DNA of 64,000 nucleotides from a virus (IMGVR_UViG_3300033417_000005:8617-72616); one strand, 5' to 3'. Shown: positions 2,274 through 56,829, numbered from the stretch's first letter. Numbers and translations: made by a program. Notes: generated by a model from the sequence alone, not told the origin.

Positions 2274-2316
2274 ACGATCAAGTAAGGACGTAACAATGCT
2301 TCGCAAGGAATAACGC

Positions 2317-2751
2317 ATGGCCAACGAAATTAGAATTACTTCCGGTCTTTCCATCAACACTCCAGCCTCCGGGCCTGTACTAATAGAGAACTTTTCCGAC
2401 TCATTTCAGGCGGACATGGCAGGCCGCAAGGGGCCTAGTCCAGGGGCCATTAGCGTCAGTACGGCGGGGACCGACGTTGACTTTAGCGAGCTGACTACTC
2501 CAGCGATATGCCGGATCAAAAATTTGGACGGCACCAACTTTGTGGAGTATGGAATTTGGGACCCGGACAATAGCAAGTTCTTTCCACTCGGTGAAATTCT
2601 CCCGGGCGAAGCGTACGTACTGCGCCTAAGCAGGAACTTGATGGAAGAGTTTGGGACGGGGACAGGAACCACGGGACCGGGAATAAACACATTACGGTTC
2701 AAAGCGGATACGGCTCCCGTGGTTGTCGTCGTAGACGCCTACGAACTTTAG
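2317..2751 (+). CDS. Putative virion structural protein
   Basis: AAGGA SD before ATG. Beta-rich 144 aa. Shares PxxxxIxNLxG...ILxGE with the next ORF. Confidence 0.55.
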   Translation: MANEIRITSGLSINTPASGPVLIENFSDSFQADMAGRKGPSPGAISVSTAGTDVDFSELTTPAICRIKNLDGTNFVEYGIWDPDNSKFFPLGEILPGEAYVLRLSRNLMEEFGTGTGTTGPGINTLRFKADTAPVVVVVDAYEL

Positions 2752-2762
2752 AGAGGATATCC

Positions 2763-3293
2763 ATGTCCATTGATAATTTCATAGAACAGGAAAGGGACGT
2801 GACAATGCTAGATTCTCTAGAAGCTTCGCAGCTTTGCAAGGAGGGTGAGGCGGCTACAACGGCTCCCTACACGAAGGCGAAACCGTTCGACCGTTTAACA
2901 GTGGTGGAAACCGTCTACTATCAAGCGTATGAAGAGTCGCCGGTTTCTATCGAGTCGAAGTACGAACGGATTTTGCAAACGGTTCAGGAGCAGGTGTATA
3001 TTCGTAGGTTGACGGCTACCCAAGAATGGGAGCTCCTGGAGTATGGATGGGTGGAAGATCCCGGCCTAGTTCATATCCAAAACTTAGAGGGGAAAGGGCC
3101 GAGCGATCTGCCCGAACAGGAACGGGCGGCCTTGTCTGACACTCTGCTTCTCCTCGTATCTCATAACAAAACCCTTATCAGTTCCTGGGTGATACTGGCC
3201 GGTGAATCCATGCGTGGACTGCCTCAAGGGGAATTGTTTGTCCGTTCTTTGAATAAGCCCGTACGTTTTACTCTAAGGGCAATTCCCAAATAA
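2763..3293 (+). CDS. Putative virion structural protein, paralog of 2317-2751
   Basis: GAGGA SD. PGLVHIQNLEG...ILAGES versus PAICRIKNLDG...ILPGEA. Confidence 0.5.
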   Translation: MSIDNFIEQERDVTMLDSLEASQLCKEGEAATTAPYTKAKPFDRLTVVETVYYQAYEESPVSIESKYERILQTVQEQVYIRRLTATQEWELLEYGWVEDPGLVHIQNLEGKGPSDLPEQERAALSDTLLLLVSHNKTLISSWVILAGESMRGLPQGELFVRSLNKPVRFTLRAIPK

Positions 3294-3307
3294 AGTTAAC
3301 GCAGGCA

Positions 3308-13864: not shown

Positions 13865-13907
13865 ACAAACATCTAGGACGCCACATAACTTCGTTAGGAG
13901 ACCTGTG

Positions 13908-15386: not shown

Positions 15387-15791
15387 TCAAAAAGGCAGCC
15401 GATGCTTTTCAATGCGGTCTTTCCAATGGGCGAGTTCTTGCTTGGTCCACGTTCTAGCCGCTGGATGCTTCATGCGCAGTACGGCGCAGTCGGGCTTGTA
15501 GCCACAATTCTTGTAGGTATCCCACGCCACGTTGCCACACACAAGCAATAGGTGATAGCTAATCCGCTGCAAAGTACGAGCCAGCCGTTGAGGGTCGGGG
15601 GTGCCTTTTTGCTGCGCATTGGCCACTTGTTCCACGCACGCATTGGTGACTAAGAAGTTTGAGTGGCCAATGAGATAGTACAGCCGGCGACCGCTAAAGT
15701 TATTGCGGTTGATTTGAAACAGCGAGGGAGCAATAGGCTGCTTGACGCCCCACATCACTTCCAGCACCACGAGACATTGAATGTGCATCAT
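15387..15791 (-). CDS. Divergent uracil-DNA glycosylase superfamily protein
   Basis: LVTNAC...LLVCGNVA...MKHPAAR correspond to conserved UDG-superfamily elements. Confidence 0.55.
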   Translation of the reverse strand: MMHIQCLVVLEVMWGVKQPIAPSLFQINRNNFSGRRLYYLIGHSNFLVTNACVEQVANAQQKGTPDPQRLARTLQRISYHLLLVCGNVAWDTYKNCGYKPDCAVLRMKHPAARTWTKQELAHWKDRIEKHRLPF

Positions 15792-17164
15792 TGGACAATC
15801 TCCTCATAGAGCTTCGTTACGAGAGGGGTAATTGTGTAGCGCAGTCTGCCTCGCATGGGTCTCCCTCCAAAGTCCGCGCCTGTGTGGGTCTGTACAACTT
15901 TCACCTTGACCAAGAACCGCAGCAGCTTGACCAATTCTCCTTCGCTCTGGTTTAGCCGTACTGCCAGCGCCCCCAGCTCACACCCTTCCGGATGTTCTCG
16001 AAGCAGCTGCACAATCTGTAGCGTAGCCCCACGGCTCGTATCCAAGCACACCTTGCGTATTCGTTGCATTACCTCCTCATCTACTTCTTCACGATTCAAT
16101 ACCACGGCCAAACACAGCGACATGCGTATATGCTGGCTTACCAGCCGACTAGCGCATTCACGGGTGGCAGCTTCGGTGACGTTTGCATTGGGACGCGCTC
16201 GCATGTACGCGGTAAACTTGCCGAGCCGTATACAGTAGTCCCTCGCCTTGTTGCTCATCTTTGTGCTTGCCAGCAGCTCTTCCGCATTTTCGCGCAAATA
16301 GTCCACATATCCGCCGGTAAGCCGCATGGCGTTGGCAGTGGCGGCGTCGTATACGCCGTAAGCATTAGCCTCTTCTTCTCCCCTGCTCATACTTCCCCTT
16401 GCTCGGTTGCCGACGTGCAATAGAATTTTGTCTTCTAGCACGTCGCTAATTTGGTCCATAATTACACAGTCCAAGAATCTTTCCCCCAACTCGCTCGTGT
16501 CAATGGCTCGCAGGCTGCTTGTACCGCATAGAATCCAGGTAAGGTTGATCCCCTCGTAGGTCCTACTCATCTTGTTACGATAGTGAGTACGGCTCACCCG
16601 ATCATAGATGTCACGGGCCTCGCTAAGAATCTGGCCACGGTTGGGAGCTTGCAGCAGCGTGTCACCATCCTTGACGATCAGGGTCTTGTTATGGAGTTGT
16701 ACGAGCAGGCTATTGTCTTCATCTTTCTCCGAACCAAATCCACTATGAAACCCCCGAATGGTGCTCTTGGCCATCACGTACTGACCGCTTACGCTCAGGG
16801 CTTCGGCCAGTGTGGACTTTCCACAGCTAGGAGGCCCGATAATTTTCACCCAAAGCTGATCCCCCACGGTGCGGGTGCTGGTTACGCTCGCCAGCATCAC
16901 GCTTAAGGCGCAGTCGAGTCCCCGGGTCCAGTACATGGCCTTGCGCCACGCCCCGATCAGCTCGATATAACTAGTGCAAGGGGCGGGTTGTAAGTTACCT
17001 AGTTTACCACCGTTTTTGAGGGCCTCAGGACCGCCGCCAAGCCATTTTGACGGTAACGGGTACAGGTTGCCAAGCAACCACGCCAAACGCTGCTGAGGCG
17101 TCCCTGAGGGGCTTGTTTTTGGGGCTGTATTTTGCTGGGGGGTGCCTTGGCGCACTAAGGGCAT
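15788..17164 (-). CDS. AAA+/MCM-like replicative helicase (primase partner)
   Basis: IIGPPSCGKST Walker A, LIVKDGDT Walker B variant, ELGERFL arginine finger. Adjacent to primase. Confidence 0.7.
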   Translation of the reverse strand: MPLVRQGTPQQNTAPKTSPSGTPQQRLAWLLGNLYPLPSKWLGGGPEALKNGGKLGNLQPAPCTSYIELIGAWRKAMYWTRGLDCALSVMLASVTSTRTVGDQLWVKIIGPPSCGKSTLAEALSVSGQYVMAKSTIRGFHSGFGSEKDEDNSLLVQLHNKTLIVKDGDTLLQAPNRGQILSEARDIYDRVSRTHYRNKMSRTYEGINLTWILCGTSSLRAIDTSELGERFLDCVIMDQISDVLEDKILLHVGNRARGSMSRGEEEANAYGVYDAATANAMRLTGGYVDYLRENAEELLASTKMSNKARDYCIRLGKFTAYMRARPNANVTEAATRECASRLVSQHIRMSLCLAVVLNREEVDEEVMQRIRKVCLDTSRGATLQIVQLLREHPEGCELGALAVRLNQSEGELVKLLRFLVKVKVVQTHTGADFGGRPMRGRLRYTITPLVTKLYEEIVQ

Positions 17165-17194: not shown

Positions 17195-18061
17195 TTAGTT
17201 AAGAGGGGCTAGTAGATCGCTGAGGTCGTACCCGTCCTTCAATTCGGGGCTGTAGTTGCAGTCGAGCGTATTACCGTTCCAGCTCAAATACTGAATCTTC
17301 TTAGGTGGGTCGGGGCTGTTCTTAAGCAAGGCGGCAACACGCTTGAGACCTTCCCAAGCAGCGGGTGGAGATTTGTCCTTTGGTAGATCGTTGTCGTAGA
17401 GCAGGTTCACGGTTCCACGGGCAAACAACGCGCACCATTCACGACGAAACACGCTGCAACTCGGCACGGCGTACACGTTGCTCGTGCTAAACAATTTCTT
17501 TCGGTGCTTCTTCATTAGCTCCCAAAATCTCAGCCCGTCCCACAATCCTTCGCATACATAGTGGGCAGTCGCCGCAGGTTTGTAAAGCGGTCCAAGACCA
17601 AACAGTCCGTGGCGCAGGCCGCTCATAGGCAGCAAGAGGGTACGCTTGCGATTTTGAACGTAGCGATACAACTGTTGCAGCTTCCACTCTAGGGTATAAG
17701 CAGGGACCAGCCACTCCCCGGTGAGTACGCTTTTGCAAAGACCCCACTGTTCTAGAGTTTCAGGATTTTCGATACTACGGTGGTTACACAACGGCAAGTA
17801 ATCTTTCATGCCGGTGGCCAAACAGCTCGCATCCCACAGCCACCGAATAAAGTCGATTGGATTGCGCAGGTCGCACCCGTGCTTGCAATTGCACAGTCCG
17901 TTTTCGACGTGGATGTAGAATTTCTCACGCTGGCATACGGGACATTCAGCGCGCATCTCATCACCTGTTTGATTGATAAACTGCACCCCGTAAGCGGAGT
18001 ATACGGCGAGCCCTGGCGGCGCAGCGGTCTTGTCGCGGCGCTCCTTCACCCTTTTTCTCAT
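17195..18061 (-). CDS. DNA primase (zinc finger + TOPRIM)
   Basis: CPVC...CNCKHGC, YVCEGLWDG, LLYDND. Confidence 0.8.
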   Translation of the reverse strand: MRKRVKERRDKTAAPPGLAVYSAYGVQFINQTGDEMRAECPVCQREKFYIHVENGLCNCKHGCDLRNPIDFIRWLWDASCLATGMKDYLPLCNHRSIENPETLEQWGLCKSVLTGEWLVPAYTLEWKLQQLYRYVQNRKRTLLLPMSGLRHGLFGLGPLYKPAATAHYVCEGLWDGLRFWELMKKHRKKLFSTSNVYAVPSCSVFRREWCALFARGTVNLLYDNDLPKDKSPPAAWEGLKRVAALLKNSPDPPKKIQYLSWNGNTLDCNYSPELKDGYDLSDLLAPLN

Positions 18062-18110
18062 CTTCGTATTTTTCCCAAAATTTTGAACTCGGCCCGCTAA
18101 AACCAGATTA

Positions 18111-19559
18111 CTACGGGTGCTGCAATTGTAAGTGTTTGACGTTAACTTCGTACCTATTAGGATTTCCGGATCCAAGTTCCAGGACGTCTACCCACGTGGT
18201 ATCATATTCATCCTCAAACGGTTCGCTGACAAGCTGTGCTAAGTAGTGATCGTCTCCATCGTCGTCGCGTACCCACGCTCTATCACCCAAGCTCCATCGG
18301 TTTTCGTGGTGCTTACGCGCCTTGAACACTCTCTTCGCCTTTTTTGCCTGCGCAGCGGTGTGGCGTCCTTTAACGGCTGCTTGCGGCGCAGTCTCATTCT
18401 CATTAGCCACGAGCTCATCTTCCACCATGTCGACGCCCCCTAAGGTGGGAAGTTCATCAAGGATGCGTGCTCCCTCGTCGCTTGTGGTATAGTGAATTTC
18501 CACGTTTTGAAGGGTGCATTTGCCGGATTCAATCCAGGCGTTCCAGCCATTGCACACGACGGCCATCCTCAGAGAAGCCGGAACTACTCCTCCTTCATCG
18601 ATTAGTTCCGCGATTTTGGTTCTCACGGCGCGAACGACCCCAGCGTTCTGCGCCAAGGCTGTCACGAACTTTTTCGCCTGCTCGTATTGTTCCAAATTCA
18701 GGTTCTCTTCACGCCGGTCAAAACGGTACTTGGCGTAGTCGCTTTTGCTTGCCGCCATCAGGTACATCAGTCCCGCGGTATAGCCGCAGCTCAGCAGCTT
18801 GGCAATCGCATTGGTCTTGCCGTTTTCCACGTATACGTGACGTACACAGTCAACAAGAGTGGGGTGATTGTTCAAGAATTCCTGGCTGTCGCTATGGGTA
18901 CGAACGGGAGTCTCGTGGACTGCCTGCGCCCCACTGCGGTGCCACAAGATCTGCACGGCGAATTGCCCCAGCTTCGCCACGCGCTTACGATGGCCCTTAT
19001 TCAGGTCGGCAAAGTGTGAGGTACGAAACAGGGCGTCGGCGAAGGTGCTTTCACGAGCGGTGTCGATCGTGTTTTTGATGGCGTCCGTCTCTTCAATGCC
19101 TTTCACGATCAAGGTTTCAATCGTAGGCGGTTTGGTCAAGTGGGCGTACTTCTCCCTCTCAAGCCTCCATGTTTGCTCGGCGAGAACCAGGGCGGGCAAT
19201 ACGTGCTGTCCACTAAGAATTACTCCGTTCTTGCCGATGATGCGAGTATGGCCGTTAAACTGCCAAGCACCGCGGAGTATGTCGTGCATGTAGGTAAGAG
19301 TACGAGTGTGACTATAAGGACGGTTCGCGGTATTATAGGTACAGCGCACCTTATGCCCTTCCCGGTCCTTAAGCAAAAAGTCCTCACCAAAGGGTTGATC
19401 ACCTTCAATCTCCCACCCCAACAGCCGCTTGGCATCCTCGGCGGTAAGACTGTCCCGGCCTGTGCAAGCAACGACTTGCAGCTTGGGATAGACCGCCTTT
19501 CGCCCCGTGGACTTGCCAACGCTTCGCGAGGACTTTTTTCGGTCATTAACGATCGGCAT
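18111..19559 (-). CDS. ParB-like N-terminal domain protein
   Basis: NRPYS...YMHDILRGAWQFNG...GVILSGQHVLPAL. GGAGG SD. Confidence 0.6.
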   Translation of the reverse strand: MPIVNDRKKSSRSVGKSTGRKAVYPKLQVVACTGRDSLTAEDAKRLLGWEIEGDQPFGEDFLLKDREGHKVRCTYNTANRPYSHTRTLTYMHDILRGAWQFNGHTRIIGKNGVILSGQHVLPALVLAEQTWRLEREKYAHLTKPPTIETLIVKGIEETDAIKNTIDTARESTFADALFRTSHFADLNKGHRKRVAKLGQFAVQILWHRSGAQAVHETPVRTHSDSQEFLNNHPTLVDCVRHVYVENGKTNAIAKLLSCGYTAGLMYLMAASKSDYAKYRFDRREENLNLEQYEQAKKFVTALAQNAGVVRAVRTKIAELIDEGGVVPASLRMAVVCNGWNAWIESGKCTLQNVEIHYTTSDEGARILDELPTLGGVDMVEDELVANENETAPQAAVKGRHTAAQAKKAKRVFKARKHHENRWSLGDRAWVRDDDGDDHYLAQLVSEPFEDEYDTTWVDVLELGSGNPNRYEVNVKHLQLQHP

Positions 19560-24452: not shown

Positions 24453-25358
24453 ATGGTGAAGATAACCAAGGACGTGACAATGGACGTTACAAGCAAGCAG
24501 CTTCGCAAAGGGTCCGTGAGCGGAAGGAAAAGGAAGTTACAAAGCTCCACGAAATCACAAAGCGTGATAGACCGTATTGCTCCGATCAACTTTGGTGAAA
24601 ACGATGGAATCAAGCTCAACCTCTATGGACGGAGCGGCACCGGGAAGACCACATTGTGGGCCACCTTTCCTAAACCGATACTGGCGGTGCTGGCTTCCGA
24701 ATCTAAGACGTCGGGGGAACTTCGGAGCATCAATACTTCCGAGTACCGTAAGACGATCAAGCAAGTGGTGCTGGAAGACTGTGACGAAATCGAGGAAATC
24801 TGCGCCCACGTGAAAGAAGCAAACTATGCTACTTTGGTATTGGACCACGCCACCGGATTGCAGCACAAGGTTTTGGCTGAAGTTCTAGGAATTGATAAAG
24901 TGCCGGAACAGCTTACTTGGGGGCTCGCCACTCAGTCGCAATACGGTCAGGTGGGGGTACGCATGAAGACTTATTTGCGCGCTCTGCTAGACGTAGAAAT
25001 CAACGTGGTGATCGTGGCACAGCAAAGAGAATTTCTTACGGAAGGGGATGAGGGGGCAAGTGAGATTTTAGCTCCGTACGTAGCGAGCGCCTTGAGCCCG
25101 AGCACGTGCGCATGGCTCAACTCCTCGTGCGACTACATTGCACAGACCTACATTAGGGAAGAAACGCTGGAAAAGAAGATCAAGATGGGAAAGAAGACAC
25201 GTATTCGCAAGGTGCGCACGGGCAGCGTACAATTCTGTTTACGGGCTGCACCTCACGCCGTGTATACCACCAAATTTCGCAGACCGAAAGGAGGAACGTA
25301 TCCGGATGTTATTGTAGACCCTGATTATGACAAGATCATGCAAGTCGTGAAAGGATAA
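24453..25358 (+). CDS. AAA_24/Sak4-like ATPase (recombination)
   Basis: LYGRSGTGKTT, TLVLDHATG, DYIAQT. Near the exonuclease and SSB-like genes. Confidence 0.8.
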   Translation: MVKITKDVTMDVTSKQLRKGSVSGRKRKLQSSTKSQSVIDRIAPINFGENDGIKLNLYGRSGTGKTTLWATFPKPILAVLASESKTSGELRSINTSEYRKTIKQVVLEDCDEIEEICAHVKEANYATLVLDHATGLQHKVLAEVLGIDKVPEQLTWGLATQSQYGQVGVRMKTYLRALLDVEINVVIVAQQREFLTEGDEGASEILAPYVASALSPSTCAWLNSSCDYIAQTYIREETLEKKIKMGKKTRIRKVRTGSVQFCLRAAPHAVYTTKFRRPKGGTYPDVIVDPDYDKIMQVVKG

Positions 25359-26866: not shown

Positions 26867-27183
26867 CGCGATTTCTACGCCGTACGGCGCACTCCCAGTC
26901 TTCCGGATGAGATGGGACGGGGGATTAGGGTGATTGCCCCACCGCGCCGTACGGTTTTTTGCTGCGCCAAGGACGTTACATTGCTGCGCCAAGGTGCAAG
27001 CCTGCTTCTAAGCCCCTCAGCCGCACCGTACAGGGCCTAAACCGGCTTTGGCTGCCCCCAGCTGCCATAAACCGCCAACTAGCGCCACATGGCGGCTGAG
27101 AGGCTCTCAGGGGCTTGTAAGAGTGGGCAGTTAGGGTAAAATAGGGGGCATAGCCAGTATCCCACACATTGCGCAGGTCCACC

Positions 27184-36284: not shown

Positions 36285-37035
36285 ACTAGTCAAAACTTGT
36301 GAGCTATGTGGAGGGGAGTTTAAGGCTGTAAGAAGAACTAGAAGATTTTGTTCCCGAGAGTGCTCTAGCAGGCGTGCTAGACCTAAGAAGCCTAGACTAG
36401 GCAAAATTTGCGAGTTCTGTGGAGAAAAATACAAAACTCTAAACAGCGATCGAAGATTTTGTTCTCATGAGTGTGCTGGTAGGGTGAACGCTCGCGGTAA
36501 GACTAGAAGACCGCCGACTACACAAGAGATAGAAGAGAAGTTTTGGAGTAGAGCGGCCAAACGAAAGAAGGGGTGTTGGAAGTGGACAGGTGGGAAGAAC
36601 GGAGTAGGCTACGGAATATTTAGGGGCAGGTGCGCGCACCGATTTTCTTACGAACTGCTCGTAGGAGCCATCCCTGAGGGATTGTTTGTCTGCCATACCT
36701 GCGACAACCGGGAATGTGTTAATCCTAAACATCTGTTTGTCGGGACTCAGCAAGACAACATGTCCGATATGCGGGCGAAGGGACGTGGGCATTGTCATCC
36801 GAAGGGGACAGTGTGGGGGATGAGTAAGATGGTCCAAAAGAATCCAGAATTGGTACAAGGAGAGAGAAATGGAAGGCATAAGCTGACGGAAGACGACGTT
36901 AGAGAAATTAGAAAGAGATTTAGGCAGTACGCTTATAGAAGGAGTAATGCTAAGCAGTTGGCTAGGGAATTTGGTGTTTGTAAAAACGCGATTTATCAGA
37001 TTATAAGAAAGGCAGCATGGGGTCATGTCAAATAA
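36277..37035 (+). CDS. Free-standing HNH homing endonuclease
   Basis: Two CxxC...RRFCSxEC zinc repeats, AHRFSY...VCHTCDNRECVNPKHL...N, C-terminal HTH. Confidence 0.85.
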   Translation: MPRLVKTCELCGGEFKAVRRTRRFCSRECSSRRARPKKPRLGKICEFCGEKYKTLNSDRRFCSHECAGRVNARGKTRRPPTTQEIEEKFWSRAAKRKKGCWKWTGGKNGVGYGIFRGRCAHRFSYELLVGAIPEGLFVCHTCDNRECVNPKHLFVGTQQDNMSDMRAKGRGHCHPKGTVWGMSKMVQKNPELVQGERNGRHKLTEDDVREIRKRFRQYAYRRSNAKQLAREFGVCKNAIYQIIRKAAWGHVK

Positions 37036-38278: not shown

Positions 38279-38610
38279 GGTTTAAGGGCCGTAGGTGCGT
38301 GCTAGCGCTAGGGGGCCTCAGTGGCCCTTAGCCGTACACACCGGGCTAGGGCAGTGTTACCTGCCCCCACAAGCAAGCGCAGCGCTGTAACGCCCCTAGC
38401 GTAGGGCAGGGCGTAAATGGGGCCGCCTCAGTGGCCCTCAGCCGTACGCGCCTAGGGGCAGGCGTGGTATTACTGCCCCTTAGCAAACGTGCGTTAGGGC
38501 GCAAATGAGGGGCCGTGAGGGGCAAGCACCTTGCGCAGCAATTGTTACGCCCTTTGGCGCATAAAAACACCCCCACGGGCACTACTACATAAGGGGGTAT
38601 ATTAACGGTG
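38279..38610. other. GA/TC-depleted intergenic island between convergent gene blocks
   Basis: Only 5 GA/TC in about 330 bp, all in CCTCA/TGAGG context. Confidence 0.85.
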
Positions 38611-39607: not shown

Positions 39608-39782
39608 AGCTAAATACTCTTAGGGTGGTGATTAGGACGTGACAAGCTAAAGCAGGACGTGTGCACTATGACGTTACAATTCGAAGACTCATGCTTCGTT
39701 AGGAAATGGCCGGTTTTAATGGGACCGGCCGAACCCCAAGCTGACAGCCCTACGAGGCGTCCTGCCTTGGCTTGATGACCCC

Positions 39783-40081: not shown

Positions 40082-40342
40082 TTAGTACCTAGTGATGAGA
40101 TAAATGGTGATTGTGGGCACCAAGAGTATGAGGGCCGCCCAGAATACAAAACCCACGATCAGGCACGCAATATCGGCACGTCGTGAGGCTCGCTTCCGCA
40201 CCAGCTGGCGATACTCTTCGGTTATCTCGCCAACAATGGCCTTCTGCTCGGCAACGTACTTCTCGAACTCGGCGCTGGTTATCCGAGGGCCTTGCACGGG
40301 GGGAGGTGTTACGGTCGTGGACGTTACAATTCGAGGACTCAT
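40082..40342 (-). CDS. Membrane protein with C-terminal TM helix
   Basis: AAGGAG SD; hydrophobic C-terminus. Confidence 0.6.
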   Translation of the reverse strand: MSPRIVTSTTVTPPPVQGPRITSAEFEKYVAEQKAIVGEITEEYRQLVRKRASRRADIACLIVGFVFWAALILLVPTITIYLITRY

Positions 40343-40492
40343 GGCGTTACTCCTTCGTTAAGGGCTTTGGAACAGGCAAGGAAGAACAAGAACAAATGGT
40401 ATCCTAACCATAGCATGAGGACGGCTAGGGTAAGATTTGCACCTGCGCCGATTAACTGGAGCATGACCTCAAGAAGGTTGGGTTCCTCGTGT

Positions 40493-40864: not shown

Positions 40865-41205
40865 GTGACTTCTCCTTTCTGCGAAGCAATCTTTAGCTTT
40901 TCTTGAATGGGATATACGACGCCTCGTATTTTCAGTTCGAGCACGGCGTCGAGTGGAATGCTGCGGTACGCCTGTTTTTGTACGTCCCACACGGTAAGCA
41001 GGTTGTGCTCTTCAGGGTTGTAGGCCAGCCCTTTTCCTTGCGCAGCATTGTCACGTCCTTTGAGGTCCTTGGCCACCCCCAAACGGCATACCATGCGCCG
41101 AGGCTGCCCGTCAGTCCGCTTGATAAACAGGCAGCTGAATATCGTGGCTCCTGCTTTGTTGACAATCAGCCGTTTGGCTTTGGAGGTTTTACTTTTCTTC
41201 TTCAT
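40861..41205 (-). CDS. SH3-like beta-barrel phage protein (WYL-like)
   Basis: FIKRTDGQPRRM...LLTVWDVQKQAYRSIPL. Confidence 0.65.
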   Translation of the reverse strand: MKKKSKTSKAKRLIVNKAGATIFSCLFIKRTDGQPRRMVCRLGVAKDLKGRDNAAQGKGLAYNPEEHNLLTVWDVQKQAYRSIPLDAVLELKIRGVVYPIQEKLKIASQKGEVT

Positions 41206-41518: not shown

Positions 41519-41796
41519 TATTTCTCTCCTTTTTCTAAAACGCGGTATAGGTCCTCCGCCCATTGGTCGTAGGTTTGGTTCCTTGGTACGCCGATCCAGA
41601 TCCATAGGGTGCGCATTGTTTGGGCAACCGCCTTCGTGCTTAGGTGGTCGTCTACAACAGCGGTTACGATGCGTTCTAAAATCTCTTCTTTGGGGGTACG
41701 CATACCAGCTTTGCTCATTTGTTGCAGCACCGTGCGCCTTACGCGACTGCGTGAGGACGTTACAACGCTGCGCGAGGTTTTACTTTTCTTCTTCAT
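41518..41796 (-). CDS. Hypothetical protein
   Basis: Shares its MKKKSKTS start with 40861-41205. Confidence 0.6.
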   Translation of the reverse strand: MKKKSKTSRSVVTSSRSRVRRTVLQQMSKAGMRTPKEEILERIVTAVVDDHLSTKAVAQTMRTLWIWIGVPRNQTYDQWAEDLYRVLEKGEK

Positions 41797-42315: not shown

Positions 42316-42712
42316 TTGAGGTCTCCAGTCGGTGGTAAATGCGTTCAGCCAATTCCGTGCAAGTTATTTCTAGCGGCTGGCCGATTATGCCGCTCCACTT
42401 TTGAATAAAGCACCCCACGTCGCAGGCCGATAAATGGTCTTCAATTAACTGTGCCACTTCTTCTATTGGGTTGGGGTACCGGTGGTCTAACCCGGCAAGT
42501 TTGAACTCTTTCTTGACTGCTTTTCTAATTTTCCTGTTCATCTTTACTCTCTCTCTTTCTAAGGTGCGTTCTTCGGGACGTGACATGACTTCGTCAGGAT
42601 GGCGCTCCAAGTAACAAGCGTGGCAATCCTGTTCGTGCCGTTTGCCTTCCGCGTAGGTGCTAAAGGGCTCGCCACAGGCGGCCACATAAACGTCGGTGTA
42701 ATTCCAGCTCAT
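42305..42712 (-). CDS. Hypothetical protein
   Basis: AGGAG SD; N-terminal CxxH...C motif. Confidence 0.6.
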   Translation of the reverse strand: MSWNYTDVYVAACGEPFSTYAEGKRHEQDCHACYLERHPDEVMSRPEERTLERERVKMNRKIRKAVKKEFKLAGLDHRYPNPIEEVAQLIEDHLSACDVGCFIQKWSGIIGQPLEITCTELAERIYHRLETSNGY

Positions 42713-43449: not shown

Positions 43450-43476
43450 TAGGCTGTCCTTTCTTTAAGTTGGATG

Positions 43477-44112
43477 TTACAGCGCTGCGCTTGGTACGTT
43501 TCGTAAAGCAGCCTCAAATACTTGATAGAGATATTCTTTGACGTCGTTGCGGTTTGGCCCGCTGATCTTTAACTCAAAGTCATTGGTCAGGCTGGGGCGC
43601 ACCGTGCAGACATGGAAAGTCCATCCGTCGTACATGCCCACTTCATTCGTATGATGATAGCCGAAGCGCAGTACGAGTTTGTTGGCGTTGCTGCGTTCCA
43701 GGTCGAAAACAACCTCGTCGTCGACACCACTGCCATGAGGCAGCCACTCAGCAACTAGCTCTTTGATTTCTTGTTCATGCTTCTCCTTCCATTCAAGGTT
43801 GTTGGACTCGACACAGGTAAGGCGCGCCTGGCAAAGGATGGCCAGTGCTTGGTACAGGGGGCCTGTCTTCTTGGGGGAAGCGTAAAAGAGTTTGTTTCCA
43901 TTCATAATTCGTGCAACAACGTGCCAGTTGTATTCAATGGAGGGAATGGTGACGTCAATAGGTGCAATCGTCGCGAATGTGTTTTTTCTTCCGGTGACTC
44001 TTGCGGGATATTCAATTCCACCGATAGTAAGCCAGCATTCTTGTCCTGCAAACTTTTTCGCAAGATTTCTGGTTTCGTAAACCGTTGGCCGCAGTCTTGT
44101 GTTCCAGCTCAT
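43477..44112 (-). CDS. Hypothetical early protein
   Basis: LPHGSGVD...YHHTNEVGMYDGWT...ISGPNRNDVKEYL. Confidence 0.65.
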   Translation of the reverse strand: MSWNTRLRPTVYETRNLAKKFAGQECWLTIGGIEYPARVTGRKNTFATIAPIDVTIPSIEYNWHVVARIMNGNKLFYASPKKTGPLYQALAILCQARLTCVESNNLEWKEKHEQEIKELVAEWLPHGSGVDDEVVFDLERSNANKLVLRFGYHHTNEVGMYDGWTFHVCTVRPSLTNDFELKISGPNRNDVKEYLYQVFEAALRNVPSAAL

Positions 44113-44902: not shown

Positions 44903-45004
44903 TTCATTTCTCCTTGTGGGTGTTACAACGCTTCGCGAGGTGTTGTGTACTCCGTCCCCGTGGGTGCCACATTGTGTGGCGGCCAAGGCACGGGGCCAAC
45001 CTAT

Positions 45005-45727: not shown

Positions 45728-46045
45728 ATGGTCCGCGAAACTATGGTGTGGGAACCAGAATATCCACTGCCGAAATTGACAGCCGAAGACCGTCAAGCCT
45801 TGAATGAAATTGATATCAACAAAATAATTGCCAGCGTGGTGGCGGAGATGCCGCCCGAGGACGTTACAACGCTTCGCGAACAACAAAAACCATGGAAGGT
45901 GACCGATACGTTCGGTAACACAATTCAGCGATACAAAACTAAATCGGATGCATTAGCGTCGTGCATTGCTAGAAATCTACTCGCGAGGGAGATGGGATTG
46001 TGGATGAGGTATCGCGTTGCGAGAGATCAAGGGTGGGACGAGTGA
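45728..46045 (+). CDS. Hypothetical protein
   Basis: GGAGG SD. Confidence 0.55.
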   Translation: MVRETMVWEPEYPLPKLTAEDRQALNEIDINKIIASVVAEMPPEDVTTLREQQKPWKVTDTFGNTIQRYKTKSDALASCIARNLLAREMGLWMRYRVARDQGWDE

Positions 46046-47565: not shown

Positions 47566-47930
47566 GAAATGGAAGATGAATGAAAACCCTTGGCCGGAAA
47601 ACGATTTGTGAATGCAAGCGCAGCGCTGTAACGTCCAAGAAACGGGGTACTTCTAAATACCTCAAAAGTGGCAAATAATCTACCAGTTTGTTAAGCTAGG
47701 CAAACCTAGGCTGAGGGGCCCAAATTTGCGACCTCACGCACTTTGCCGGGTTTTGGCATAAAACTAGCCACTTGCCATTTTAGGACGTCAGATCCTAAAT
47801 TTGGGTCCCTGAGGACAAATTAAAAAGCAAACCGCATTGCCAATTGCCAAACCTGAATTTTCAAAACGCTCTGTACAGCGTACCCTTCGCCTCGTAGCGA
47901 CATAGCCCCATTGCCCCGTATGTCGGCTCG

Positions 47931-48788: not shown

Positions 48789-49332
48789 GGGGTACGCACA
48801 AAATTTTACAAAAAAGATTTTGGAAGTTTGGCATAAGGAATGCGTACCATAGTGTACGGCTATACAGTGTACACAATTACATCTAGGTATACAGCTGTGC
48901 ACTACTGTACGGATGTACTTGGATTGGATTTGGCGGTTCGCGGCTGGTGCGGAGAATCGTGGTCTTGCCCCTACCCTACGTCGTGCATTTTTGGATCAAA
49001 ATCTGCCCCTTAGCCACGTCGTGTATTCATGAGTCTTCGAATTGTAACGTCCTAGCGAAGCTATGTTACGTCCTTGGATCAAGATCAGCCCATTTCACTC
49101 ACTCTTTCGTTCACTGAGGGAAAAATTTGCTCCTATTTCGCGAGTCCTTGAAAATCTAGCGAAGCTAGCTCGAGCGAAATGAGGGACCGGTTGTGAGTTG
49201 TTTTTCACTAAAAAATCGCGATCTCGAAAATTTTCTCTCGTACCCGAGGGCTTTTTATAGTGTACGAATGTATACTGTTGTTGAACCGAAGATTCTGTGT
49301 AAAATGGGGGTATTTACGCTCTGGAGCAAGGT

Positions 49333-49980: not shown

Positions 49981-50081
49981 CGCGAGTCTTCGAGCTTATT
50001 CCGAAGGACGTGACATAACTTCGTTAGGAACTCGTAATTGACAAGTGTGAATAACAACAACAACAAAAGCAGGAGACCGTC

Positions 50082-50195
50082 ATGCAAAAAGCATTAGAAA
50101 ATTTTCTGTTTGGACTGTGTTTTGGGATGGGATTCCTTGTCGCGCAGGCGGTGTTGAATTTTATCGTGTCGCTGTTAGGTGGTGGGAGGACGTAA
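50082..50195 (+). CDS. Small membrane protein (37 aa, not in the ORF track)
   Basis: AGGAG SD. MQKALENFLFGLCFGMGFLVAQAVLNFIVSLLGGGRT. Confidence 0.6.
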   Translation: MQKALENFLFGLCFGMGFLVAQAVLNFIVSLLGGGRT

Positions 50196-50241
50196 CAATA
50201 GGCGCAGGTTTTTAGGGTAAAAAATCGCCTCGCGCCAAAAA

Positions 50242-52072: not shown

Positions 52073-53675
52073 GAAAACAGGTCGTTTTACTGATGACGGG
52101 AACGGGCATTATGGGATCAAGTTCGACTCGGCAAAGGAACTGCAACAATTCGAGGAGATTGTAGCAAATGCTCTGGTAAGCCGTCAAGAGTTCTTCAAGT
52201 CGTTCACTGATCCGAGAAGGGATATCGACGACGAATGCGGGTATCCTCGTACGGAAACCTTGGAGGTCGAAGACTACCGGGAAATGTACGACAAGGAAAG
52301 CGTGGCTGCGCGAACGGTGAACGTGCTTCCCGAGGAGAGCTGGCAAGTACAGCCCCGAGTGTTTGAAACCGAAGACGTGGATAACATAACTCCATTTGAG
52401 GAAGACTGGGCGGAGCTTCCCAAGTCGCTGCGAGGGAGAAGCTGGTATCAGGATGAAGAAGGAAACCCGGTATGGGAACTGCTCAAACGAGTAGACATCC
52501 TGAGTGGTATCGGTTCTTACGGCATCCTGCTGTTTGGTCTCGACGACCTCGACGTCAATCAGCCTCTGACGACCCCCGTTGCCGGTGTGGAAGAGATGAT
52601 GGTTGATCCTGAAAGCAAAATATCTCCTTCGCGGCATAGGCTTCTGTTTGTAAGAGCATTCGATCAGTCCCTCGTACGAATAAGTCGCTTTAACACCGAT
52701 CGGTCGCACCCTCGGCACGGATTGCCTGAGATTTATGCCGTAACGCTCAACGATCCTAGGAACAACGTACAAGGAGCGATCGGTATCGACACGGCTACCG
52801 TTGACGTGCATTGGACCCGGGTGTTGCACGTCGCCGACAACCTCGGAAGCAGCGAAGTCTTTGGCGTCCCGCGTCAGCAGCAAGTATTCAATCGGCTGTA
52901 CGATTTACGGAAAACCTACGGCGGCAGCGCCGAAATGTATTGGCGAGGAGCATTTCCCGGCCTCTCTATCGAATCCCATCCTCAATTGGGAGCCTCAGTT
53001 TCTCTGAACAAAGATGCGATTCGCAGCCAAATGGAACAATACTTTAATGGACTTCAAAGATATCTGGCGGTGGTGGGGGCAAGCGTCAAGTCCATCGCTC
53101 CTCAAGTTGTGGAGCCGAGTAAGCATATCGACCAATACATCACGGCGATCTGCATCCTTCTCGGGGTTCCCAAGCGTGTGTTCATGGGGACTGAACGTGG
53201 GCAGCTGGCATCCGGCCAAGACGACAAGACCTGGAATGACCGACTGATGAAAAGGCACAAGTCCTATCTTACGCCCAAGCTCACTGTACCTTTCATAGAT
53301 CGTCTTATCGCTTATGGGGTGCTGCGGGAACCGGAGGGATATAGCGTGGTATGGCCCGATCTCAACAATCTCACCGATCAAGAGAAAGCTGAAGTGGCCG
53401 GTAAACGAACCGAGAGCTTGGCCAAGTACGTGGCGGGCGACGTGGAAACCATCATCACTCCCGTCGATTATCTAGTTCGTATCATAGGCTTCAGTCCGGA
53501 AGAAGCTCATGCCATCGTGGAAGCGGCGGAGGAAGCGGCCGAAGAAAAAGCGATTGAAGAGGGACGTGACAATGCTTTGCAAGAAGATGAAGTTCGTGTT
53601 AGAGGCTTCAATCCGGAAGATGAAGAAGGTGATGAAACAGGTGAAGAAGATGAAGATGAAGAAGATGAAGAATAA
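52050..53675 (+). CDS. Portal protein (DUF1073-like)
   Basis: After terL. ARTVNVLPEESW, HWTRVLH, GVPKRVFMG...D..TWN; acidic tail. Confidence 0.88.
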   Translation: MKTQIRDKKTGRFTDDGNGHYGIKFDSAKELQQFEEIVANALVSRQEFFKSFTDPRRDIDDECGYPRTETLEVEDYREMYDKESVAARTVNVLPEESWQVQPRVFETEDVDNITPFEEDWAELPKSLRGRSWYQDEEGNPVWELLKRVDILSGIGSYGILLFGLDDLDVNQPLTTPVAGVEEMMVDPESKISPSRHRLLFVRAFDQSLVRISRFNTDRSHPRHGLPEIYAVTLNDPRNNVQGAIGIDTATVDVHWTRVLHVADNLGSSEVFGVPRQQQVFNRLYDLRKTYGGSAEMYWRGAFPGLSIESHPQLGASVSLNKDAIRSQMEQYFNGLQRYLAVVGASVKSIAPQVVEPSKHIDQYITAICILLGVPKRVFMGTERGQLASGQDDKTWNDRLMKRHKSYLTPKLTVPFIDRLIAYGVLREPEGYSVVWPDLNNLTDQEKAEVAGKRTESLAKYVAGDVETIITPVDYLVRIIGFSPEEAHAIVEAAEEAAEEKAIEEGRDNALQEDEVRVRGFNPEDEEGDETGEEDEDEEDEE

Positions 53676-53976: not shown

Positions 53977-53991
53977 GCGAAAGCAGCAATC

Positions 53992-54786
53992 ATGCCAATC
54001 ATGCGTTGTAAGAAAGAAGGTACGCTCGGCTGGAAGTTCGGCAGCGGCGGCAAATGCTACACCGGAGCCGGTGCCAAGGCGAAAGCAAAGCAGCAAGGCC
54101 GAGCGATACAAGCGAGCGGATTTGTCGATAACGCGAAACGAAGCAGCAATACAAACCTGCTACGCGCCGACCCTACTCGTAGCGCTGGTCTGCGCCGTAG
54201 GGCTCGTAGTAAGATAAAGAAGGCAATGGCCGATCTAGAATTTTCAAATTTACTCGGTCATTCCTCTGTCTATCTATTAAACGACCCCATTACCAAAGCG
54301 TACACGAAAGGAGTTACCCGTTCGTTCGATCAAGTACGGTTATTCCAAAGTATCCATCACGAAATTGAACGTGAAGAGTTCATGCGGTTTGTGCCGTACA
54401 ATTCAGCCATTCAAAGACTTCACGCTCGCGTTTCCAACGAGCTTCGAGGAATCTTTCAATCCTTGCAGCACATCCAAGTGCGTACGGAAATTGAGGCCGA
54501 AGAGAAAGATCAATCAGAATCTAAGCAGCGAGCGATTCTGCGCCGAAGGATCAGAAAACTGCAAACCCGAGCTATGACAGTTGTGGATACGGAAATCGTG
54601 CGCGCCTTTGTACGAGGGCAGCTTGATGGCTTTGTACCTCTCCAAGTACAAAAGGTCAGGATCCGTCCGGAACAAGGATGCAGAGAGTGCGCCAAAGCAT
54701 CCAAATCGGTGTTTACCCTCAAACAAGCTCAAGACGTTCTTCCACTCCATCCTCTTTGTCGCTGCATCTTCACACCCCATGACTAA
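53992..54786 (+). CDS. Head morphogenesis/minor head protein (SPP1 gp7/Mu gpF-like, shortened)
   Basis: DPTRS, TEIVRAF...G, CRECA, PLHPLCRC. Confidence 0.75.
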   Translation: MPIMRCKKEGTLGWKFGSGGKCYTGAGAKAKAKQQGRAIQASGFVDNAKRSSNTNLLRADPTRSAGLRRRARSKIKKAMADLEFSNLLGHSSVYLLNDPITKAYTKGVTRSFDQVRLFQSIHHEIEREEFMRFVPYNSAIQRLHARVSNELRGIFQSLQHIQVRTEIEAEEKDQSESKQRAILRRRIRKLQTRAMTVVDTEIVRAFVRGQLDGFVPLQVQKVRIRPEQGCRECAKASKSVFTLKQAQDVLPLHPLCRCIFTPHD

Positions 54787-55033
54787 AAACGGCCATACAA
54801 AAACCGAAGCTGCGATTTTCAACATGCTAAGCGACGGTCTGTCGCATAGTCGTAAAGAGTTGATGACCTGTTTGTGGGATGAACTCGCCGGTCGTTGTTC
54901 GCTGCAAGTGCATATCTACAATCTGCGCAGAAAACTGCCTCCGGGGGAAGCCATTATCTGCACAGCTCGGGGAGGCACGTATGGGTATCAGCACGTGAGG
55001 CTTCTGCACAATCCGTATGACGGGAAGAATTAA
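54779..55033 (+). CDS. OmpR/PhoB-type winged-helix DNA-binding protein (no receiver domain)
   Basis: SRKEL...LW...SLQVHIYNLRRKL...GY. Confidence 0.7.
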   Translation: MTKNGHTKTEAAIFNMLSDGLSHSRKELMTCLWDELAGRCSLQVHIYNLRRKLPPGEAIICTARGGTYGYQHVRLLHNPYDGKN

Positions 55034-55099
55034 ACGCATTCGGTTAAACTCTCTAGTATTCCCTTGCAGATAGAATCTTCAATGACTAGATTGAGGGGC

Positions 55100-56776
55100 A
55101 TGCTCAATCTAACGGTAAACCTCGTCGGCAAAGCGCGCCGCGCCACCTTGCACGGAAGGGAATACCTCGTAGCTCCCGCAGTCATGATTGTGCCGGGAGT
55201 GCTCGACGGCAGCAAGGGTCCCCTCCTCTACGAGCTCGAAGAGATTAGGAACAGCACTCCTCGGTGGAACTACATTCCTATCACGTATAACCACCCGTTT
55301 GACGAGCAAGGGCAGGCGATCAGCGCCCGCAGCCCTGGAGTTCTCGACAAGATAGGACTGGGAGTGGTGCTCAACTCTCACACGAACGGCAAGCTAAGAG
55401 CGGAGACCTGGTTTGACGTGGAGATAACGAGGAGTATCGATCCAAGAATTATTGACCGTCTGATCAAAGGCGATCCGATTGAGCTTAGTACGGGGCTGGG
55501 GAGCAGCACCATTCCGGCTTCTAAAGGGGCTCTCCACAACGGCGTCCCCTACAAAGGAATCGCCAAAGAGTTTGAGCCCGACCATTTGGCGGTACTGGTC
55601 GACGGAGTGGGAGCTTGCGGGCTGCGCGACGGCTGCGGGGTCTTGGTCAACGAAAAGGGTAAGAGCGTGATAAAGAACGCCAGCCTTTACGGTGCCACGG
55701 GTCCTGGTCCAAGAGACGGACACGTTCACAGCGTCGTATTGAACACGGCTGGAGATGGTAACACTACGACAGAAGACGGCCATAATCACCAGATTGTGAA
55801 CTTTGTGGTGCAAGAGGCGGATGGCCATACTCATACTCTTATTCGTGACGGCCTAGTAGAAAACCAAAACGACCTGAGCCACGAGCAGATGCGGAATGCT
55901 CTGGAAACCCTGCTGCGGAAAAGGTTCACGCAAGACGAACCCACGGCGTACGTGGAAAACGTGTTTGACGACTTTGTGATCTTCAGCCAGTTCGACAAGC
56001 TGATGAAGATGAAGTTCAATCGTGACGGGGATGAGGTTTCTCTATCCGACGAAGATCCAGTTCCTGTCGTGCGTAAGACCAGTTTTGTCGCCCTCACGGG
56101 TGAAGACGATTTAGAAAAGGAGGAAGAAATGGCTAAGATGACTGATAATGAGAAGAAGACACTGGTGGACGGACTTATCGCAAACTGCCCCTGCTGGGCG
56201 GAGGCCGATCGGGACGTGCTCAACAAGTTCGACGACGCCAAGCTGACGGCGATTAAGAAACACGTTGAGGACGAGGCGAGCAAGGACAGGATCCTCAACG
56301 CCGCCAAACAGGGATTCAAGGCGGGTAACGACCAGTACGTTTTGAACGACAAGGGTGAGTGGGAGAAGAAGGAAGGAAAGAAGGAAGAGAAGAAGAAAGA
56401 TTCAGTCGTCAATGAAGAAAAGAAGCCTCAAACCGACGAGGATTGGCTGGCCAGCGCTCCACCGAAAATTCAAAGTGCGGTGCGCAACGCGATGGCGATC
56501 GAGGCGGGGGAAAAGGAGCAGCTTATCAATCAGCTAACGGTGAATACTCCAGCCGCTAAGAAAGAAGCGGTGCTCAACCGACTAAACCGGATGGATCTGG
56601 AAACGCTGCGTGACCTGAGCGCGGTTGCGCCCAAGGAGGAAGAGAAGCCTCGAACGGTTAATTATCTTGGAGCGTCGGTCCCTTCAAGAGGACACACTGT
56701 TCCAGACGACGATCCGGACGATGTACTTCCACTGCCTACGGTCAATTGGAAAGAGGCCGCTAGCGAAGTTATGTAA
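55100..56776 (+). CDS. Prohead protease (DUF2213-like) fused to scaffold
   Basis: PITYNHP, ELSTG, DHLAVL...GACG...GCG; charged coiled-coil C-terminal half. Confidence 0.82.
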   Translation: MLNLTVNLVGKARRATLHGREYLVAPAVMIVPGVLDGSKGPLLYELEEIRNSTPRWNYIPITYNHPFDEQGQAISARSPGVLDKIGLGVVLNSHTNGKLRAETWFDVEITRSIDPRIIDRLIKGDPIELSTGLGSSTIPASKGALHNGVPYKGIAKEFEPDHLAVLVDGVGACGLRDGCGVLVNEKGKSVIKNASLYGATGPGPRDGHVHSVVLNTAGDGNTTTEDGHNHQIVNFVVQEADGHTHTLIRDGLVENQNDLSHEQMRNALETLLRKRFTQDEPTAYVENVFDDFVIFSQFDKLMKMKFNRDGDEVSLSDEDPVPVVRKTSFVALTGEDDLEKEEEMAKMTDNEKKTLVDGLIANCPCWAEADRDVLNKFDDAKLTAIKKHVEDEASKDRILNAAKQGFKAGNDQYVLNDKGEWEKKEGKKEEKKKDSVVNEEKKPQTDEDWLASAPPKIQSAVRNAMAIEAGEKEQLINQLTVNTPAAKKEAVLNRLNRMDLETLRDLSAVAPKEEEKPRTVNYLGASVPSRGHTVPDDDPDDVLPLPTVNWKEAASEVM

Positions 56777-56829
56777 CGTTCTAGCGCAAGCACCTATCAA
56801 TCCACTTCAATTCAATAGGAGAGAACACG

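Follow-up and report, generated by a model that had tools for sequence, protein, structure and literature searches.

A dispersed 25-nucleotide motif with a covarying mini-hairpin is probably a structure-dependent recognition site in a siphovirus-like phage

DNA words that are dispersed through a phage genome and specific to it are usually promoters or repressor sites read on the duplex. The G-N-A mini-hairpin has so far been tied to few initiation signals, those of G4, RSF1010 ssiA and N4. Its heptamer, d(GCGNAGC), is an "extraordinarily stable" DNA mini-hairpin whose loop is closed by a sheared G:A pair and which is poorly bound by single-strand DNA-binding protein (SSB); it is found at the G4 primase start site, in the single-strand initiation (ssi) signal ssiA of RSF1010, which is used by the RepB' primase, and in the promoters of the N4 virion RNA polymerase (PMC13037366, a 2026 review). 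On ssiA, a 5' tract is bound by RepB', which initiates at T32 on the 3' side of the hairpin; the resulting primer of 11-12 nt probably extends as far as the tip of the hairpin (PMC8567376). Here we analyzed a motif that is repeated across 64,000 nucleotides of viral DNA (IMGVR_UViG_3300033417_000005:8617-72616, henceforth the window, whose coordinates are used unless stated otherwise) and that joins a fixed box to a hairpin of this type. We put the probability that a phage-encoded protein recognizes it as a structure-dependent DNA site at roughly 0.75, and such a protein probably reads it on unwound DNA.

The window is the final 64 kb of an IMG/VR virus record of 72,616 bp. Exact matches to the motif core, GGACGTNACA, number 19 in the window, where 0.37 are expected, a count reached in none of 100 shuffles; the whole 72.6-kb record contains 21 exact matches and none of the reversed control pattern. 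An iterated weight matrix retrieved 28 genome sites scoring >12 bits, as against a mean of 0.3 and a maximum of 2 in Markov nulls, which bears out the claim of a first-pass annotation that more than 20 copies are present. The 22 of these 28 sites that score ≥23 bits are henceforth referred to as canonical. The family grows to ~34 members once the degenerate copies listed in that annotation are added to the weight-matrix sites. We inspected each of its 27 coordinates and all carry a real copy, although not all are complete (24470 and 50188 consist of the box alone, and 39635 is a box followed by an unrelated 3' part). Absent from the earlier list were copies at 18368 (-) and 26308 (-) and weak ones at 23325 (+), 24532 (+) and 46877 (+). 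Two more copies lie just upstream of the window, at genome positions 7657 and 7782, the latter 834 nt before its first base.

By information content the motif comprises ~25 informative positions (-1 to +24), and ~20 positions are highly conserved across copies. An A precedes the box, GGACGT-N-ACA, which is followed by two variable bases, G-C-T-K-C-G-C, a variable base and A-G-(G/C)-A. The box is made up of 10 fixed-pattern bases and the hairpin occupies the 3' half. The 19-bp consensus proposed initially was correct as far as it extended, but the motif is longer and its 3' half is a covarying hairpin. The extended sub-family proposed at the same time is also real, as the copies at 39670, 40319 and 49052 share a different, longer 3' part. 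Two of the sub-family copies (39670-39708, 40319-40343, 49028-49052) carry an opposite-strand mini open reading frame (ORF), MSLRIVTS-stop, that corresponds to the start of the protein encoded by gene 40082-40342 (MSPRIVTS...); duplication of gene 5' ends appears to have produced the sub-family. A literature search with 10-mers of the motif returned no phage-related match, and no Rfam family matches the motif.

The evidence for a structured 3' half comes from base pairing that is conserved while the bases themselves vary. Positions 12 and 20 are Watson-Crick paired in 15 of the 22 canonical sites (5.8 expected; 15 is reached in 0 of 20000 shuffles) and use all four pair types (T-A, A-T, C-G and G-C). 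Positions 13 and 19 pair in 20 of the 22 (P = 0.006), positions 14 and 18 are an invariant C-G, and shifted pairing registers gave no signal. An independent pair-counting tool, applied to a 21-site alignment, found 78.6% of cells paired compared with 62.5% in shuffles, and a covariation score of 0.383 compared with 0.141; none of 500 shuffles reached either value and slid controls did not exceed 0.117. In five GCG-type sites the pairing register is off by one base. With DNA energy parameters, ~17 of the 22 sites form a 3-4 bp stem with a 3-nt loop, and the set folds more stably than all 300 arm-swapped controls, with energies that are small (mean -1.3 kcal/mol) and that, in the standard parameters, leave out the sheared G:A bonus. 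Outlier copies hold a hairpin of a different size in the same place (CTAGA-TTC-TCTAG at 2795 and CGAAG-(7 nt)-CTTCG at 39670).

On the complementary strand, 16 of the 22 canonical sites have GCGMAGC as their exact hairpin core (GCGAAGC in 7 and GCGCAGC in 9), and C(GMA)G is present in 21. It has the G-N-A loop, the C:G closing pair and the G:C pair of the d(GCGNAGC) mini-hairpin heptamer, and the C:G-closed triloop is extended by one or two base pairs of sequence that is free provided that it pairs. Read on this strand, the element runs 5'-TCCT, mini-hairpin, TGTNACGTCC-3'. The association between heptamer and motif is specific, because the 39 heptamer copies elsewhere than in the scored sites have no flanks in common and most are without an extended stem; a few of them are partial copies of the element. 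A covarying stem together with a G-N-A loop points to recognition of unwound or extruded DNA, and to a composite DNA signal in which structure forms part of what is read. The earlier reading of the motif as a plain duplex binding site does not accommodate these features. We infer both that the hairpin forms in vivo and which strand is read. A hairpin without a box, GCGAAGC with three extra base pairs, occurs at ~49155-49170 (+) and has the same TAGC/GCTA stem as the copy at 49073.

Copies inside genes indicate at which level the motif is maintained. As noted in the first-pass annotation, they fall in unrelated genes and in different frames: in sense copies frame 1 is used for GRDNAAQ in two proteins, GRDNALQ in the portal protein and GRHTAAQ, and frame 2 for DVTM and DVTT; a copy in frame 3 would introduce a stop whenever A or G stood at the free position of the box. 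The copies occupy places where a protein tolerates them, namely linkers, tails, the N-terminus of a Sak4-like protein and gene junctions, and the same 8-9 codons are written into disordered linkers or tails of at least five unrelated proteins. In a 482-residue protein discussed below, the tail and the linker that bear copies are low-confidence in the structure model and unalignable among homologs. Because the in-gene copies use two frames, both strands and protein-tolerant places, selection acts on the DNA, as originally argued. The evidence for such selection is strong. The placement also shows that keeping the copies comes at a cost to the phage, and it illustrates how far proteins can be shaped by a signal at the DNA level. 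One bearer, the SSB-like protein encoded at 25652-26866 (+), has very long acidic Asp/Glu tracts, and its lysine-rich linker holds two head-to-head copies.

Tolerant locations and the use of both orientations would also be expected of a selfish or recombination-spread mini-repeat, comparable to repetitive extragenic palindromes or miniature inverted-repeat transposable elements, that is functionless or has been co-opted, for example as a Shine-Dalgarno sequence. The genome contains what could be relics of such an element (box-only and hairpin-only copies, and the sub-family at 39670/40319/49052, duplicated with the 5' end of a gene), and the element is absent from relatives. We nevertheless regard this origin as improbable: no Y1/HUH transposase or other mobilizing enzyme was found among the scanned phage proteins, no multi-copy host genome was present among the matches listed, and at 25 bp the element is very small, with ~20 conserved positions that argue for ongoing selection.

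The copies are enriched in non-coding DNA. Nine of the 22 canonical copies are wholly non-coding and four more straddle gene ends, in a genome with 12.6% non-coding DNA (P = 8e-4). Larger non-coding regions contain same-orientation pairs (38257-38610, 39608-39782 and 48759-49332). The first of these is the convergent region that separates the replication/modification cluster from the early cluster, and in it an outer inverted repeat of 7-8 bp, CCTGCCC...GGGGCAGG (window 38355-38410), surrounds the copy at 38395. In total 24 copies lie on the plus strand and 10 on the minus strand (P = 0.02), with 14 and 8 among canonical copies. Relative to local transcription, 14 canonical copies are sense and 7 antisense (P = 0.19), so that the orientation is not tied to transcription, in agreement with the earlier statement. 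In plus-strand clusters the motif often directly precedes a gene. In gene cluster A (Table 1) most copies are reversed, and it is the reverse complement that lies 16-38 nt upstream of minus-strand start codons.

In three copies (genome 7782, and 2286 and 13876 in the window), and weakly at 23325, the AGGA of the motif is the Shine-Dalgarno sequence 7-8 nt before an ATG. At these positions the motif is certainly part of the mRNA, and its hairpin would form in RNA too, which raises the possibility of an RNA element for processing, stability or translational control. We consider this very improbable. One third of the copies are antisense to local genes and cluster A is firmly minus-strand coding; in most copies, moreover, the C:G-closed G-N-A loop rule holds on the antisense strand, and there is no Rfam match.

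The phage encodes a candidate reader that has a counterpart in the known systems. Its primase-helicase is split into a 326-residue primase and a 458-residue helicase that are encoded in the same frame (15788-18175), with three stop codons and a new ribosome-binding site lying between the two genes. The primase aligns to residues 8-289 of a ~740-residue fused homolog (P0031; E = 2e-53) with Zn_ribbon_DnaG at its N-terminus, and the helicase aligns to the helicase half of fused homologs with 53% identity. Among relatives, the two halves form one 899-residue frame in G002 and G003 and are interrupted by a single in-frame TAA in G001. A cognate-type primase is thus present; it is DnaG-type and outside the RepB' family. 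It is the only enzyme found here with a precedent for reading a box plus a mini-hairpin. Searching the PDB directly with the sequences of primase, helicase and HNH protein (Table 1) yielded nothing informative.

We tentatively favor an ssi-like priming signal, a landing and start site for the DnaG-type primase of the phage, because the geometry resembles that of ssiA, a primase is present and an RNA polymerase was not found. A helicase, the replication fork, transcription or recombination would open the duplex and allow the hairpin to form; the hairpin would resist coating by SSB and mark the landing or start site for the phage's own primase. The primer would start in the 3' box at GTC and run toward the hairpin, as it does with RepB' on ssiA and with DnaG on the G4 origin. 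Both the identity of the primase as the reader and priming as the outcome are putative here. T7-type primases start on GTC-like trinucleotides, and the conserved 3' box contains 5'-GTC-3'.

Several observations weigh against this weak first choice. The GTC is weak evidence, as a trinucleotide is easily present by chance in a 10-mer. The stems are short and weak by nearest-neighbor energies (3-4 bp, mean -1.3 kcal/mol). The copies are strongly clustered, with 17 of 34 in the 12-kb early region (P = 7e-6), and the modification, tail and head-to-tail modules contain stretches of 9, 11 and 14.6 kb that have none; such early-region clustering is more in keeping with regulation than with lagging-strand priming in general. 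The choice of strand along the genome shows no single origin- or terminus-like switch, that is, no replication-like strand pattern. Known ssi signals number 1-2 per replicon and lie at the origin, whereas here ~30 are dispersed over both strands. Their known readers are RepB', which is archaeo-eukaryotic-type, and, on single-stranded phages, the DnaG of the host; a gp4-like primase from a double-stranded DNA phage is not among them. Finally, relatives G001 and G002 carry a homologous primase-helicase yet have neither the motif nor a common box beside mini-hairpin heptamers, which implies that this enzyme family has no general need for the motif. That a double-stranded DNA phage hard-wires its starts of DNA synthesis (or other single-strand-dependent starts) through ~30 scattered signals, some of them within genes, for its own DnaG-type primase is, in our judgment, a doubtful proposition.

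The distribution is better explained by an operator set for a phage regulator, in which ~30 sites silence or time early and middle units as an orientation-independent roadblock or repressor, in the manner of stoperators or RK2 KorB. The presence of ~30 high-information, asymmetric, dispersed sites in one genome would fit such a set, as would their enrichment in non-coding DNA (P = 8e-4) and in the early region (P = 7e-6), the same-orientation pairs and the location of some sites immediately before the ribosome-binding sites of genes in either orientation. Lineage-specific presence is usual for regulator-operator pairs, and HTH (helix-turn-helix) and weakly ParB/KorB-like proteins are encoded. 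An operator set thus accounts for distribution, pairs and lineage specificity better than priming does, but it leaves the hairpin unexplained, since a duplex binder offers no reason for stem covariation or for the G-N-A loop. Stoperators occur mostly in one orientation relative to transcription (PMC6550527), whereas the 14:7 ratio here is not significant. In addition, the phage has no palindromic ParB-type site (the TGTNACGTNACA form of a parS-like box has 2 near-matches compared with 1.5 expected), no integrase or clear immunity repressor was found in it, and a binder was not found. We therefore rate an operator set as possible rather than probable.

Candidates for such a binder are the 482-residue protein, an XRE-type HTH protein or an orphan protein of the early region. 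Three ParB-like proteins had been suggested as binders; there is no Pfam ParB domain in ~60 proteins, and only the 482-residue protein is weakly ParB/Srx-like. Its N-terminal domain, which carries an LSGQHRL signature, gave fold matches to PadC (Z 5.3), pNOB8 ParB-N (Z 4.2) and KorB (Z 4.2). The model, a confident one (mean predicted local distance difference test score 80), continues with a helical middle domain that has no clear match and, after a disordered linker, a small beta-barrel C-terminus; Foldseek returned no match for the 482-residue model at E ≤ 0.001. The HTH proteins proposed as binders do exist (two XRE-type proteins and an HNH-HTH protein), but nothing connects them to the motif.

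The same hairpin could instead belong to a promoter, either N4-like or a middle/late promoter used by the host RNA polymerase with a phage factor, running in the GGACGTNACA sense toward the hairpin and AGGA. Sense copies would then drive replication, packaging and tail genes, and copies within the early minus-strand cluster would yield antisense RNA that shuts early genes off. The logic of N4 promoters is the same: the heptamer is GC-rich, its G-N-A loop has 3 nt, and the non-conserved stem bases are constrained only to pair (PMC4496689). Sense copies do precede primase, Sak4-like, polymerase, terminase and tail genes, and those at 44918 and 49073 point into the units they precede. We nevertheless consider a hairpin promoter unlikely. 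No RNA polymerase or sigma factor was detected by Pfam or PHROGs in ~70 proteins, nor by PDB sequence search of the large proteins, although very divergent enzymes could escape these methods. One third of the copies would fire antisense, the box lies on the mini-hairpin strand at the opposite side to that of N4, and stems have 3-4 bp as compared with 5-7 bp in N4. N4 spacing would place the start after the AGGA Shine-Dalgarno sequence of ATGs 2317 and 13908, and the information content around the copies reveals no conserved -10-like element outside the motif.

Other candidates were considered and rejected. Sigma-70 promoters were discarded, as no conserved -10 element lies outside the motif and promoter-like sites in the early region (16 compared with 12.3 expected) are not enriched. 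A sigma-54 promoter fits through GG-N10-GC, probably by chance; no enhancer-binding ATPase was found, and the predicted start would follow the Shine-Dalgarno sequence. An N4-like giant polymerase was rejected because the ORF at the record junction has only ~1,450 residues, lacks PDB and Pfam matches and lies behind two ORFs of chaperone size. A target-site duplication, with AGGA on either side, is not seen consistently among copies, and a replication-direction rule fails as the strands of the copies have no single switch point.

Free-standing HNH genes of the type present in this phage are usually homing endonucleases with one target. The HNH_3-HTH gene is free-standing inside the thymidine-modification cluster and matches PHROG HNH families with E down to 6e-31. 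It nonetheless raises the alternative that the copies are strand-specific nick sites in virion DNA, of the T5, phiKMV-like or tf/Rembedalsseter type, with a nickase such as this protein (36484-37035). Nick-associated motifs are likewise dispersed, asymmetric and phage-specific and also occur in genes (PMC11780129), the tf-group motif WACTRTGAC has GTGAC in common with the box, and the encoded endonuclease has an HTH tail. The type of HNH gene, however, suggests a single-target homing endonuclease, and the protein has no sequence match to a solved nickase. The nick motifs described in that work are 9 bp and on one strand (PMC11780129), compared with 25 bp, a hairpin and a 24:10 strand distribution here, and we judge nick sites to be quite improbable.

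Conservation in related phages, suggested earlier as a check on the motif, was not observed: the motif is absent from five relatives with ~50% portal identity, two of them complete genomes. In these relatives the core is not enriched and there is no comparable over-represented word, no extended motif surrounds GACGTNAY, and no common box lies beside GCGNAGC. By these comparisons the element is a lineage-specific addition, and not a requirement of hypermodified DNA or of the primase family. A link to thymidine hypermodification was rejected, as the 5-hydroxymethyldeoxyuridine (hmdU) kinase family is also present in G001 and G002, both without the motif; a link to the split primase was rejected as well, as the G001 gene is also interrupted and has no motif, so that the two do not correlate. 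Relative G001 (L019-L021) has a modestly over-represented word of its own, AAGTGCTCCGG (5 copies compared with ~0.3 expected). No closer relative was found: the best helicase match in a 5.8-billion-protein collection is 54-56% identical, and megablast against a phage collection gave no match. In exact-pattern scans, no other contig of a viral collection has more than one exact copy, and genomes and metagenomes gave single chance matches only, among the matches listed; on these results a host repeat or uptake signal was rejected.

Table 1. Window coordinates of the copies of the element, of candidate reader genes and of gene blocks
Feature	Coordinates	Strand	Context
Canonical copy	2286..2310	+	intergenic; AGGA is the Shine-Dalgarno sequence of ATG 2317
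Variant copy	2795..2826	+	in gene, frame 2; box and longer hairpin
Canonical copy	13876..13900	+	intergenic; AGGAG is the Shine-Dalgarno sequence of ATG 13908
Canonical copy	18344..18368	-	new; disordered linker of 482-residue protein gene; ~170 nt upstream of primase start
Canonical copy, 2 box mismatches	19509..19533	+	antisense; disordered N-terminal tail of 482-residue protein gene
Weak copy, 19 bits	23325..23349	+	intergenic, immediately upstream of ATG 23354
Overlapping boxes 24470 and 24482	24470..24506	+	second box followed by altered hairpin; 5' end of AAA_24 (Sak4-like) gene
Weak copy, 21 bits	24532..24556	+	weight matrix
Canonical copy	26284..26308	-	new; antisense; charged linker of SSB-like gene; head-to-head with 26339
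Canonical copy	26339..26363	+	SSB-like gene linker, frame 1, GRDNAAQ
Canonical copy	26971..26995	+	484-bp non-coding region upstream of DNA polymerase gene; hairpin half-copy directly 5' of box
Canonical copy	29342..29366	-	antisense; spans polymerase stop/hmdU-kinase start junction
Canonical copy	38371..38395	-	convergent non-coding region beyond early-cluster 3' end; enclosed by outer inverted repeat
Copy with 1-nt insertion in hairpin	38527..38552	-	same non-coding region as 38371..38395
Box with divergent 3' part	39635..39659	+	intergenic; 28 nt from minus-strand ATG
Sub-family copy	39670..39708	+	box without first G, hairpin with 7-nt loop, then TTAGGA
Sub-family copy	40319..40343	+	contains ATG of minus-strand gene 40082-40342
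Canonical copy	41034..41058	-	in gene for 114-residue protein, frame 1, GRDNAAQ
Canonical copy	41755..41779	+	intergenic, antisense; box end 25 nt from minus-strand start codon
Canonical copy	42576..42600	+	antisense, within ORF 42305-42712
Canonical copy	43472..43496	+	intergenic/gene edge, antisense; 23 nt from minus-strand ATG
Canonical copy	44918..44942	+	divergent non-coding 44903-45138; 16 nt from first early-cluster ATG; points to plus-strand cluster
Canonical copy	45859..45883	+	in gene for 105-residue protein, frame 2, DVTT
Weak copy, 21 bits	46877..46901	+	weight matrix
Canonical copy	47612..47636	-	intergenic
Tandem pair	49028..49073	-	574-bp divergent non-coding region; canonical 49049-49073, then sub-family 49028-49052
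Canonical copy	50006..50030	+	between small and large terminase genes
Box only	50188..50197	+	45 nt upstream of large terminase ATG
Canonical copy	53562..53586	+	non-conserved acidic C-terminal portal tail, frame 1, GRDNALQ; hairpin-strand loop GCAAAGC
Canonical copy	56757..56781	-	antisense; spans stop codon of gene 55100-56776
DnaG-type primase, candidate reader	17195..18175	-	zinc ribbon and TOPRIM-like acidic motifs; separate gene, 326 residues
P-loop helicase half of gp4-like primase-helicase	15788..17164	-	458 residues
482-residue protein, candidate reader	18111..19559	-	weakly ParB/Srx-like N-terminal domain; first large gene of primase-helicase operon
DUF669-like single-strand DNA-binding protein, lead only	25652..26866	+	adjoins AAA_24 gene
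HNH_3 endonuclease, C-terminal HTH	36484..37035	+	candidate for nick-site alternative only
XRE-type HTH proteins	23944-24237, 45440-45709		candidate binders
Plus-strand genes	49.3 kb via record junction to 15.3 kb	+	
Minus-strand genes	15.4-19.8 kb	-	
Plus-strand genes	20.3-38.3 kb	+	
Minus-strand genes	38.6-44.9 kb	-	cluster A, small early-type genes
Plus-strand genes	45.1-46.8 kb	+	
Minus-strand genes	46.9-48.8 kb	-	

The first 25 bases of the record reappear at 72,343. The genome is complete, because the record ends overlap by 273 bp, and it is that of a siphovirus-like, double-stranded DNA phage. The gene map was derived from codon statistics and checked with a model trained solely on homology-supported genes. 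Packaging and head genes were identified (large terminase, portal, head protein, and small terminase at 49333-49980), together with a family-A DNA polymerase for replication. The phage further encodes an AAA_24 (Sak4-like) protein, a PD-(D/E)XK nuclease, a UDG-family protein, a 5-hmdU DNA kinase, a TET-associated glycosyltransferase-like protein, a radical-SAM/SPASM enzyme, a nucleotidase, a thymidylate-synthase homolog and a RuvC-like resolvase; no tRNA genes were found. An ORF that leaves the window (62161-) crosses the record junction, has ~1,450 residues in total and is preceded by two ORFs of ~106 residues; the protein looks tape-measure-like, and the layout looks like tail chaperones followed by a tape measure. 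A near-consensus sigma-70-like promoter (TTGACA, 16 nt, TATATT) at 46738-46765 (-) points leftward at the 3' end of the plus cluster at 45.1-46.8 kb.

If ~30 signals in a double-stranded DNA siphophage are indeed read in this way, structure-specific recognition of unwound DNA would be broader than the isolated textbook cases. The motif would then also provide a defined 25-nt test substrate for the uncharacterized gp4-like primases and regulators of uncultured phages. Should the primase prove to be the reader, the copies would help to define an undescribed class of dispersed, structure-specific DNA signals in tailed phages.

Stoperators are 13 bp in size. Those of Cluster A phages, the sites of the L5 gp71 repressor, resemble the element in being asymmetric, phage-specific, mostly intergenic and dispersed in a few dozen copies (PMC9283540, PMC6550527). 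They are predominantly in one orientation relative to transcription and have no reported hairpin, whereas the element has a covarying hairpin and no significant orientation rule. The nick motifs of tf, Rembedalsseter, phiKMV and T5 are also dispersed, asymmetric and lineage-specific and occur in genes too, but they are ~9 bp, have no hairpin and lie strictly on one strand (PMC11780129), unlike the element. The start-associated sequences (SAS) and extended SAS of Cluster K phages are dispersed, conserved, asymmetric repeats that include the ribosome-binding site before starts in the non-structural genome half, some with an adjoining inverted repeat (PMC3203893). Almost every SAS has the same orientation and lies 3-8 bp before a start codon, whereas only 3-4 of ~34 copies are so placed here and many are antisense or in genes.

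Two groups of known signals share the mini-hairpin itself. N4 promoters have the GC-rich heptamer, the 3-nt G-N-A loop and the sheared G:A pair, are extruded from duplex DNA and have one strand read (PMC4496689), and the heptamer and loop are found here as well. N4 has three promoters, all sense and at one genome end, with 5-7 bp stems, conservation from -17 to +1 and a start 5' of the hairpin; the element has 3-4 bp stems, a box 3' of the hairpin and no conservation past +24. Known ssi hosts are single-stranded phages or a strand-displacement plasmid, whereas the present host of the motif is a 72-kb double-stranded phage with early-clustered copies, and the ssi element is 40 nt long, compared with 25 nt with a 3-4 bp stem here. 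Like ssiA and ssiB of RSF1010 and the G4, St-1 and alpha3 origins, which combine a mini-hairpin of the GCGNAGC/CCGAAGG class with specific single-stranded flanks and SSB exclusion (PMC13037366, PMC8567376), the element joins a mini-hairpin to conserved flanks. Its parts follow the same order as those of ssiA, with TCCT, the hairpin and a 10-nt box that would hold the start site.

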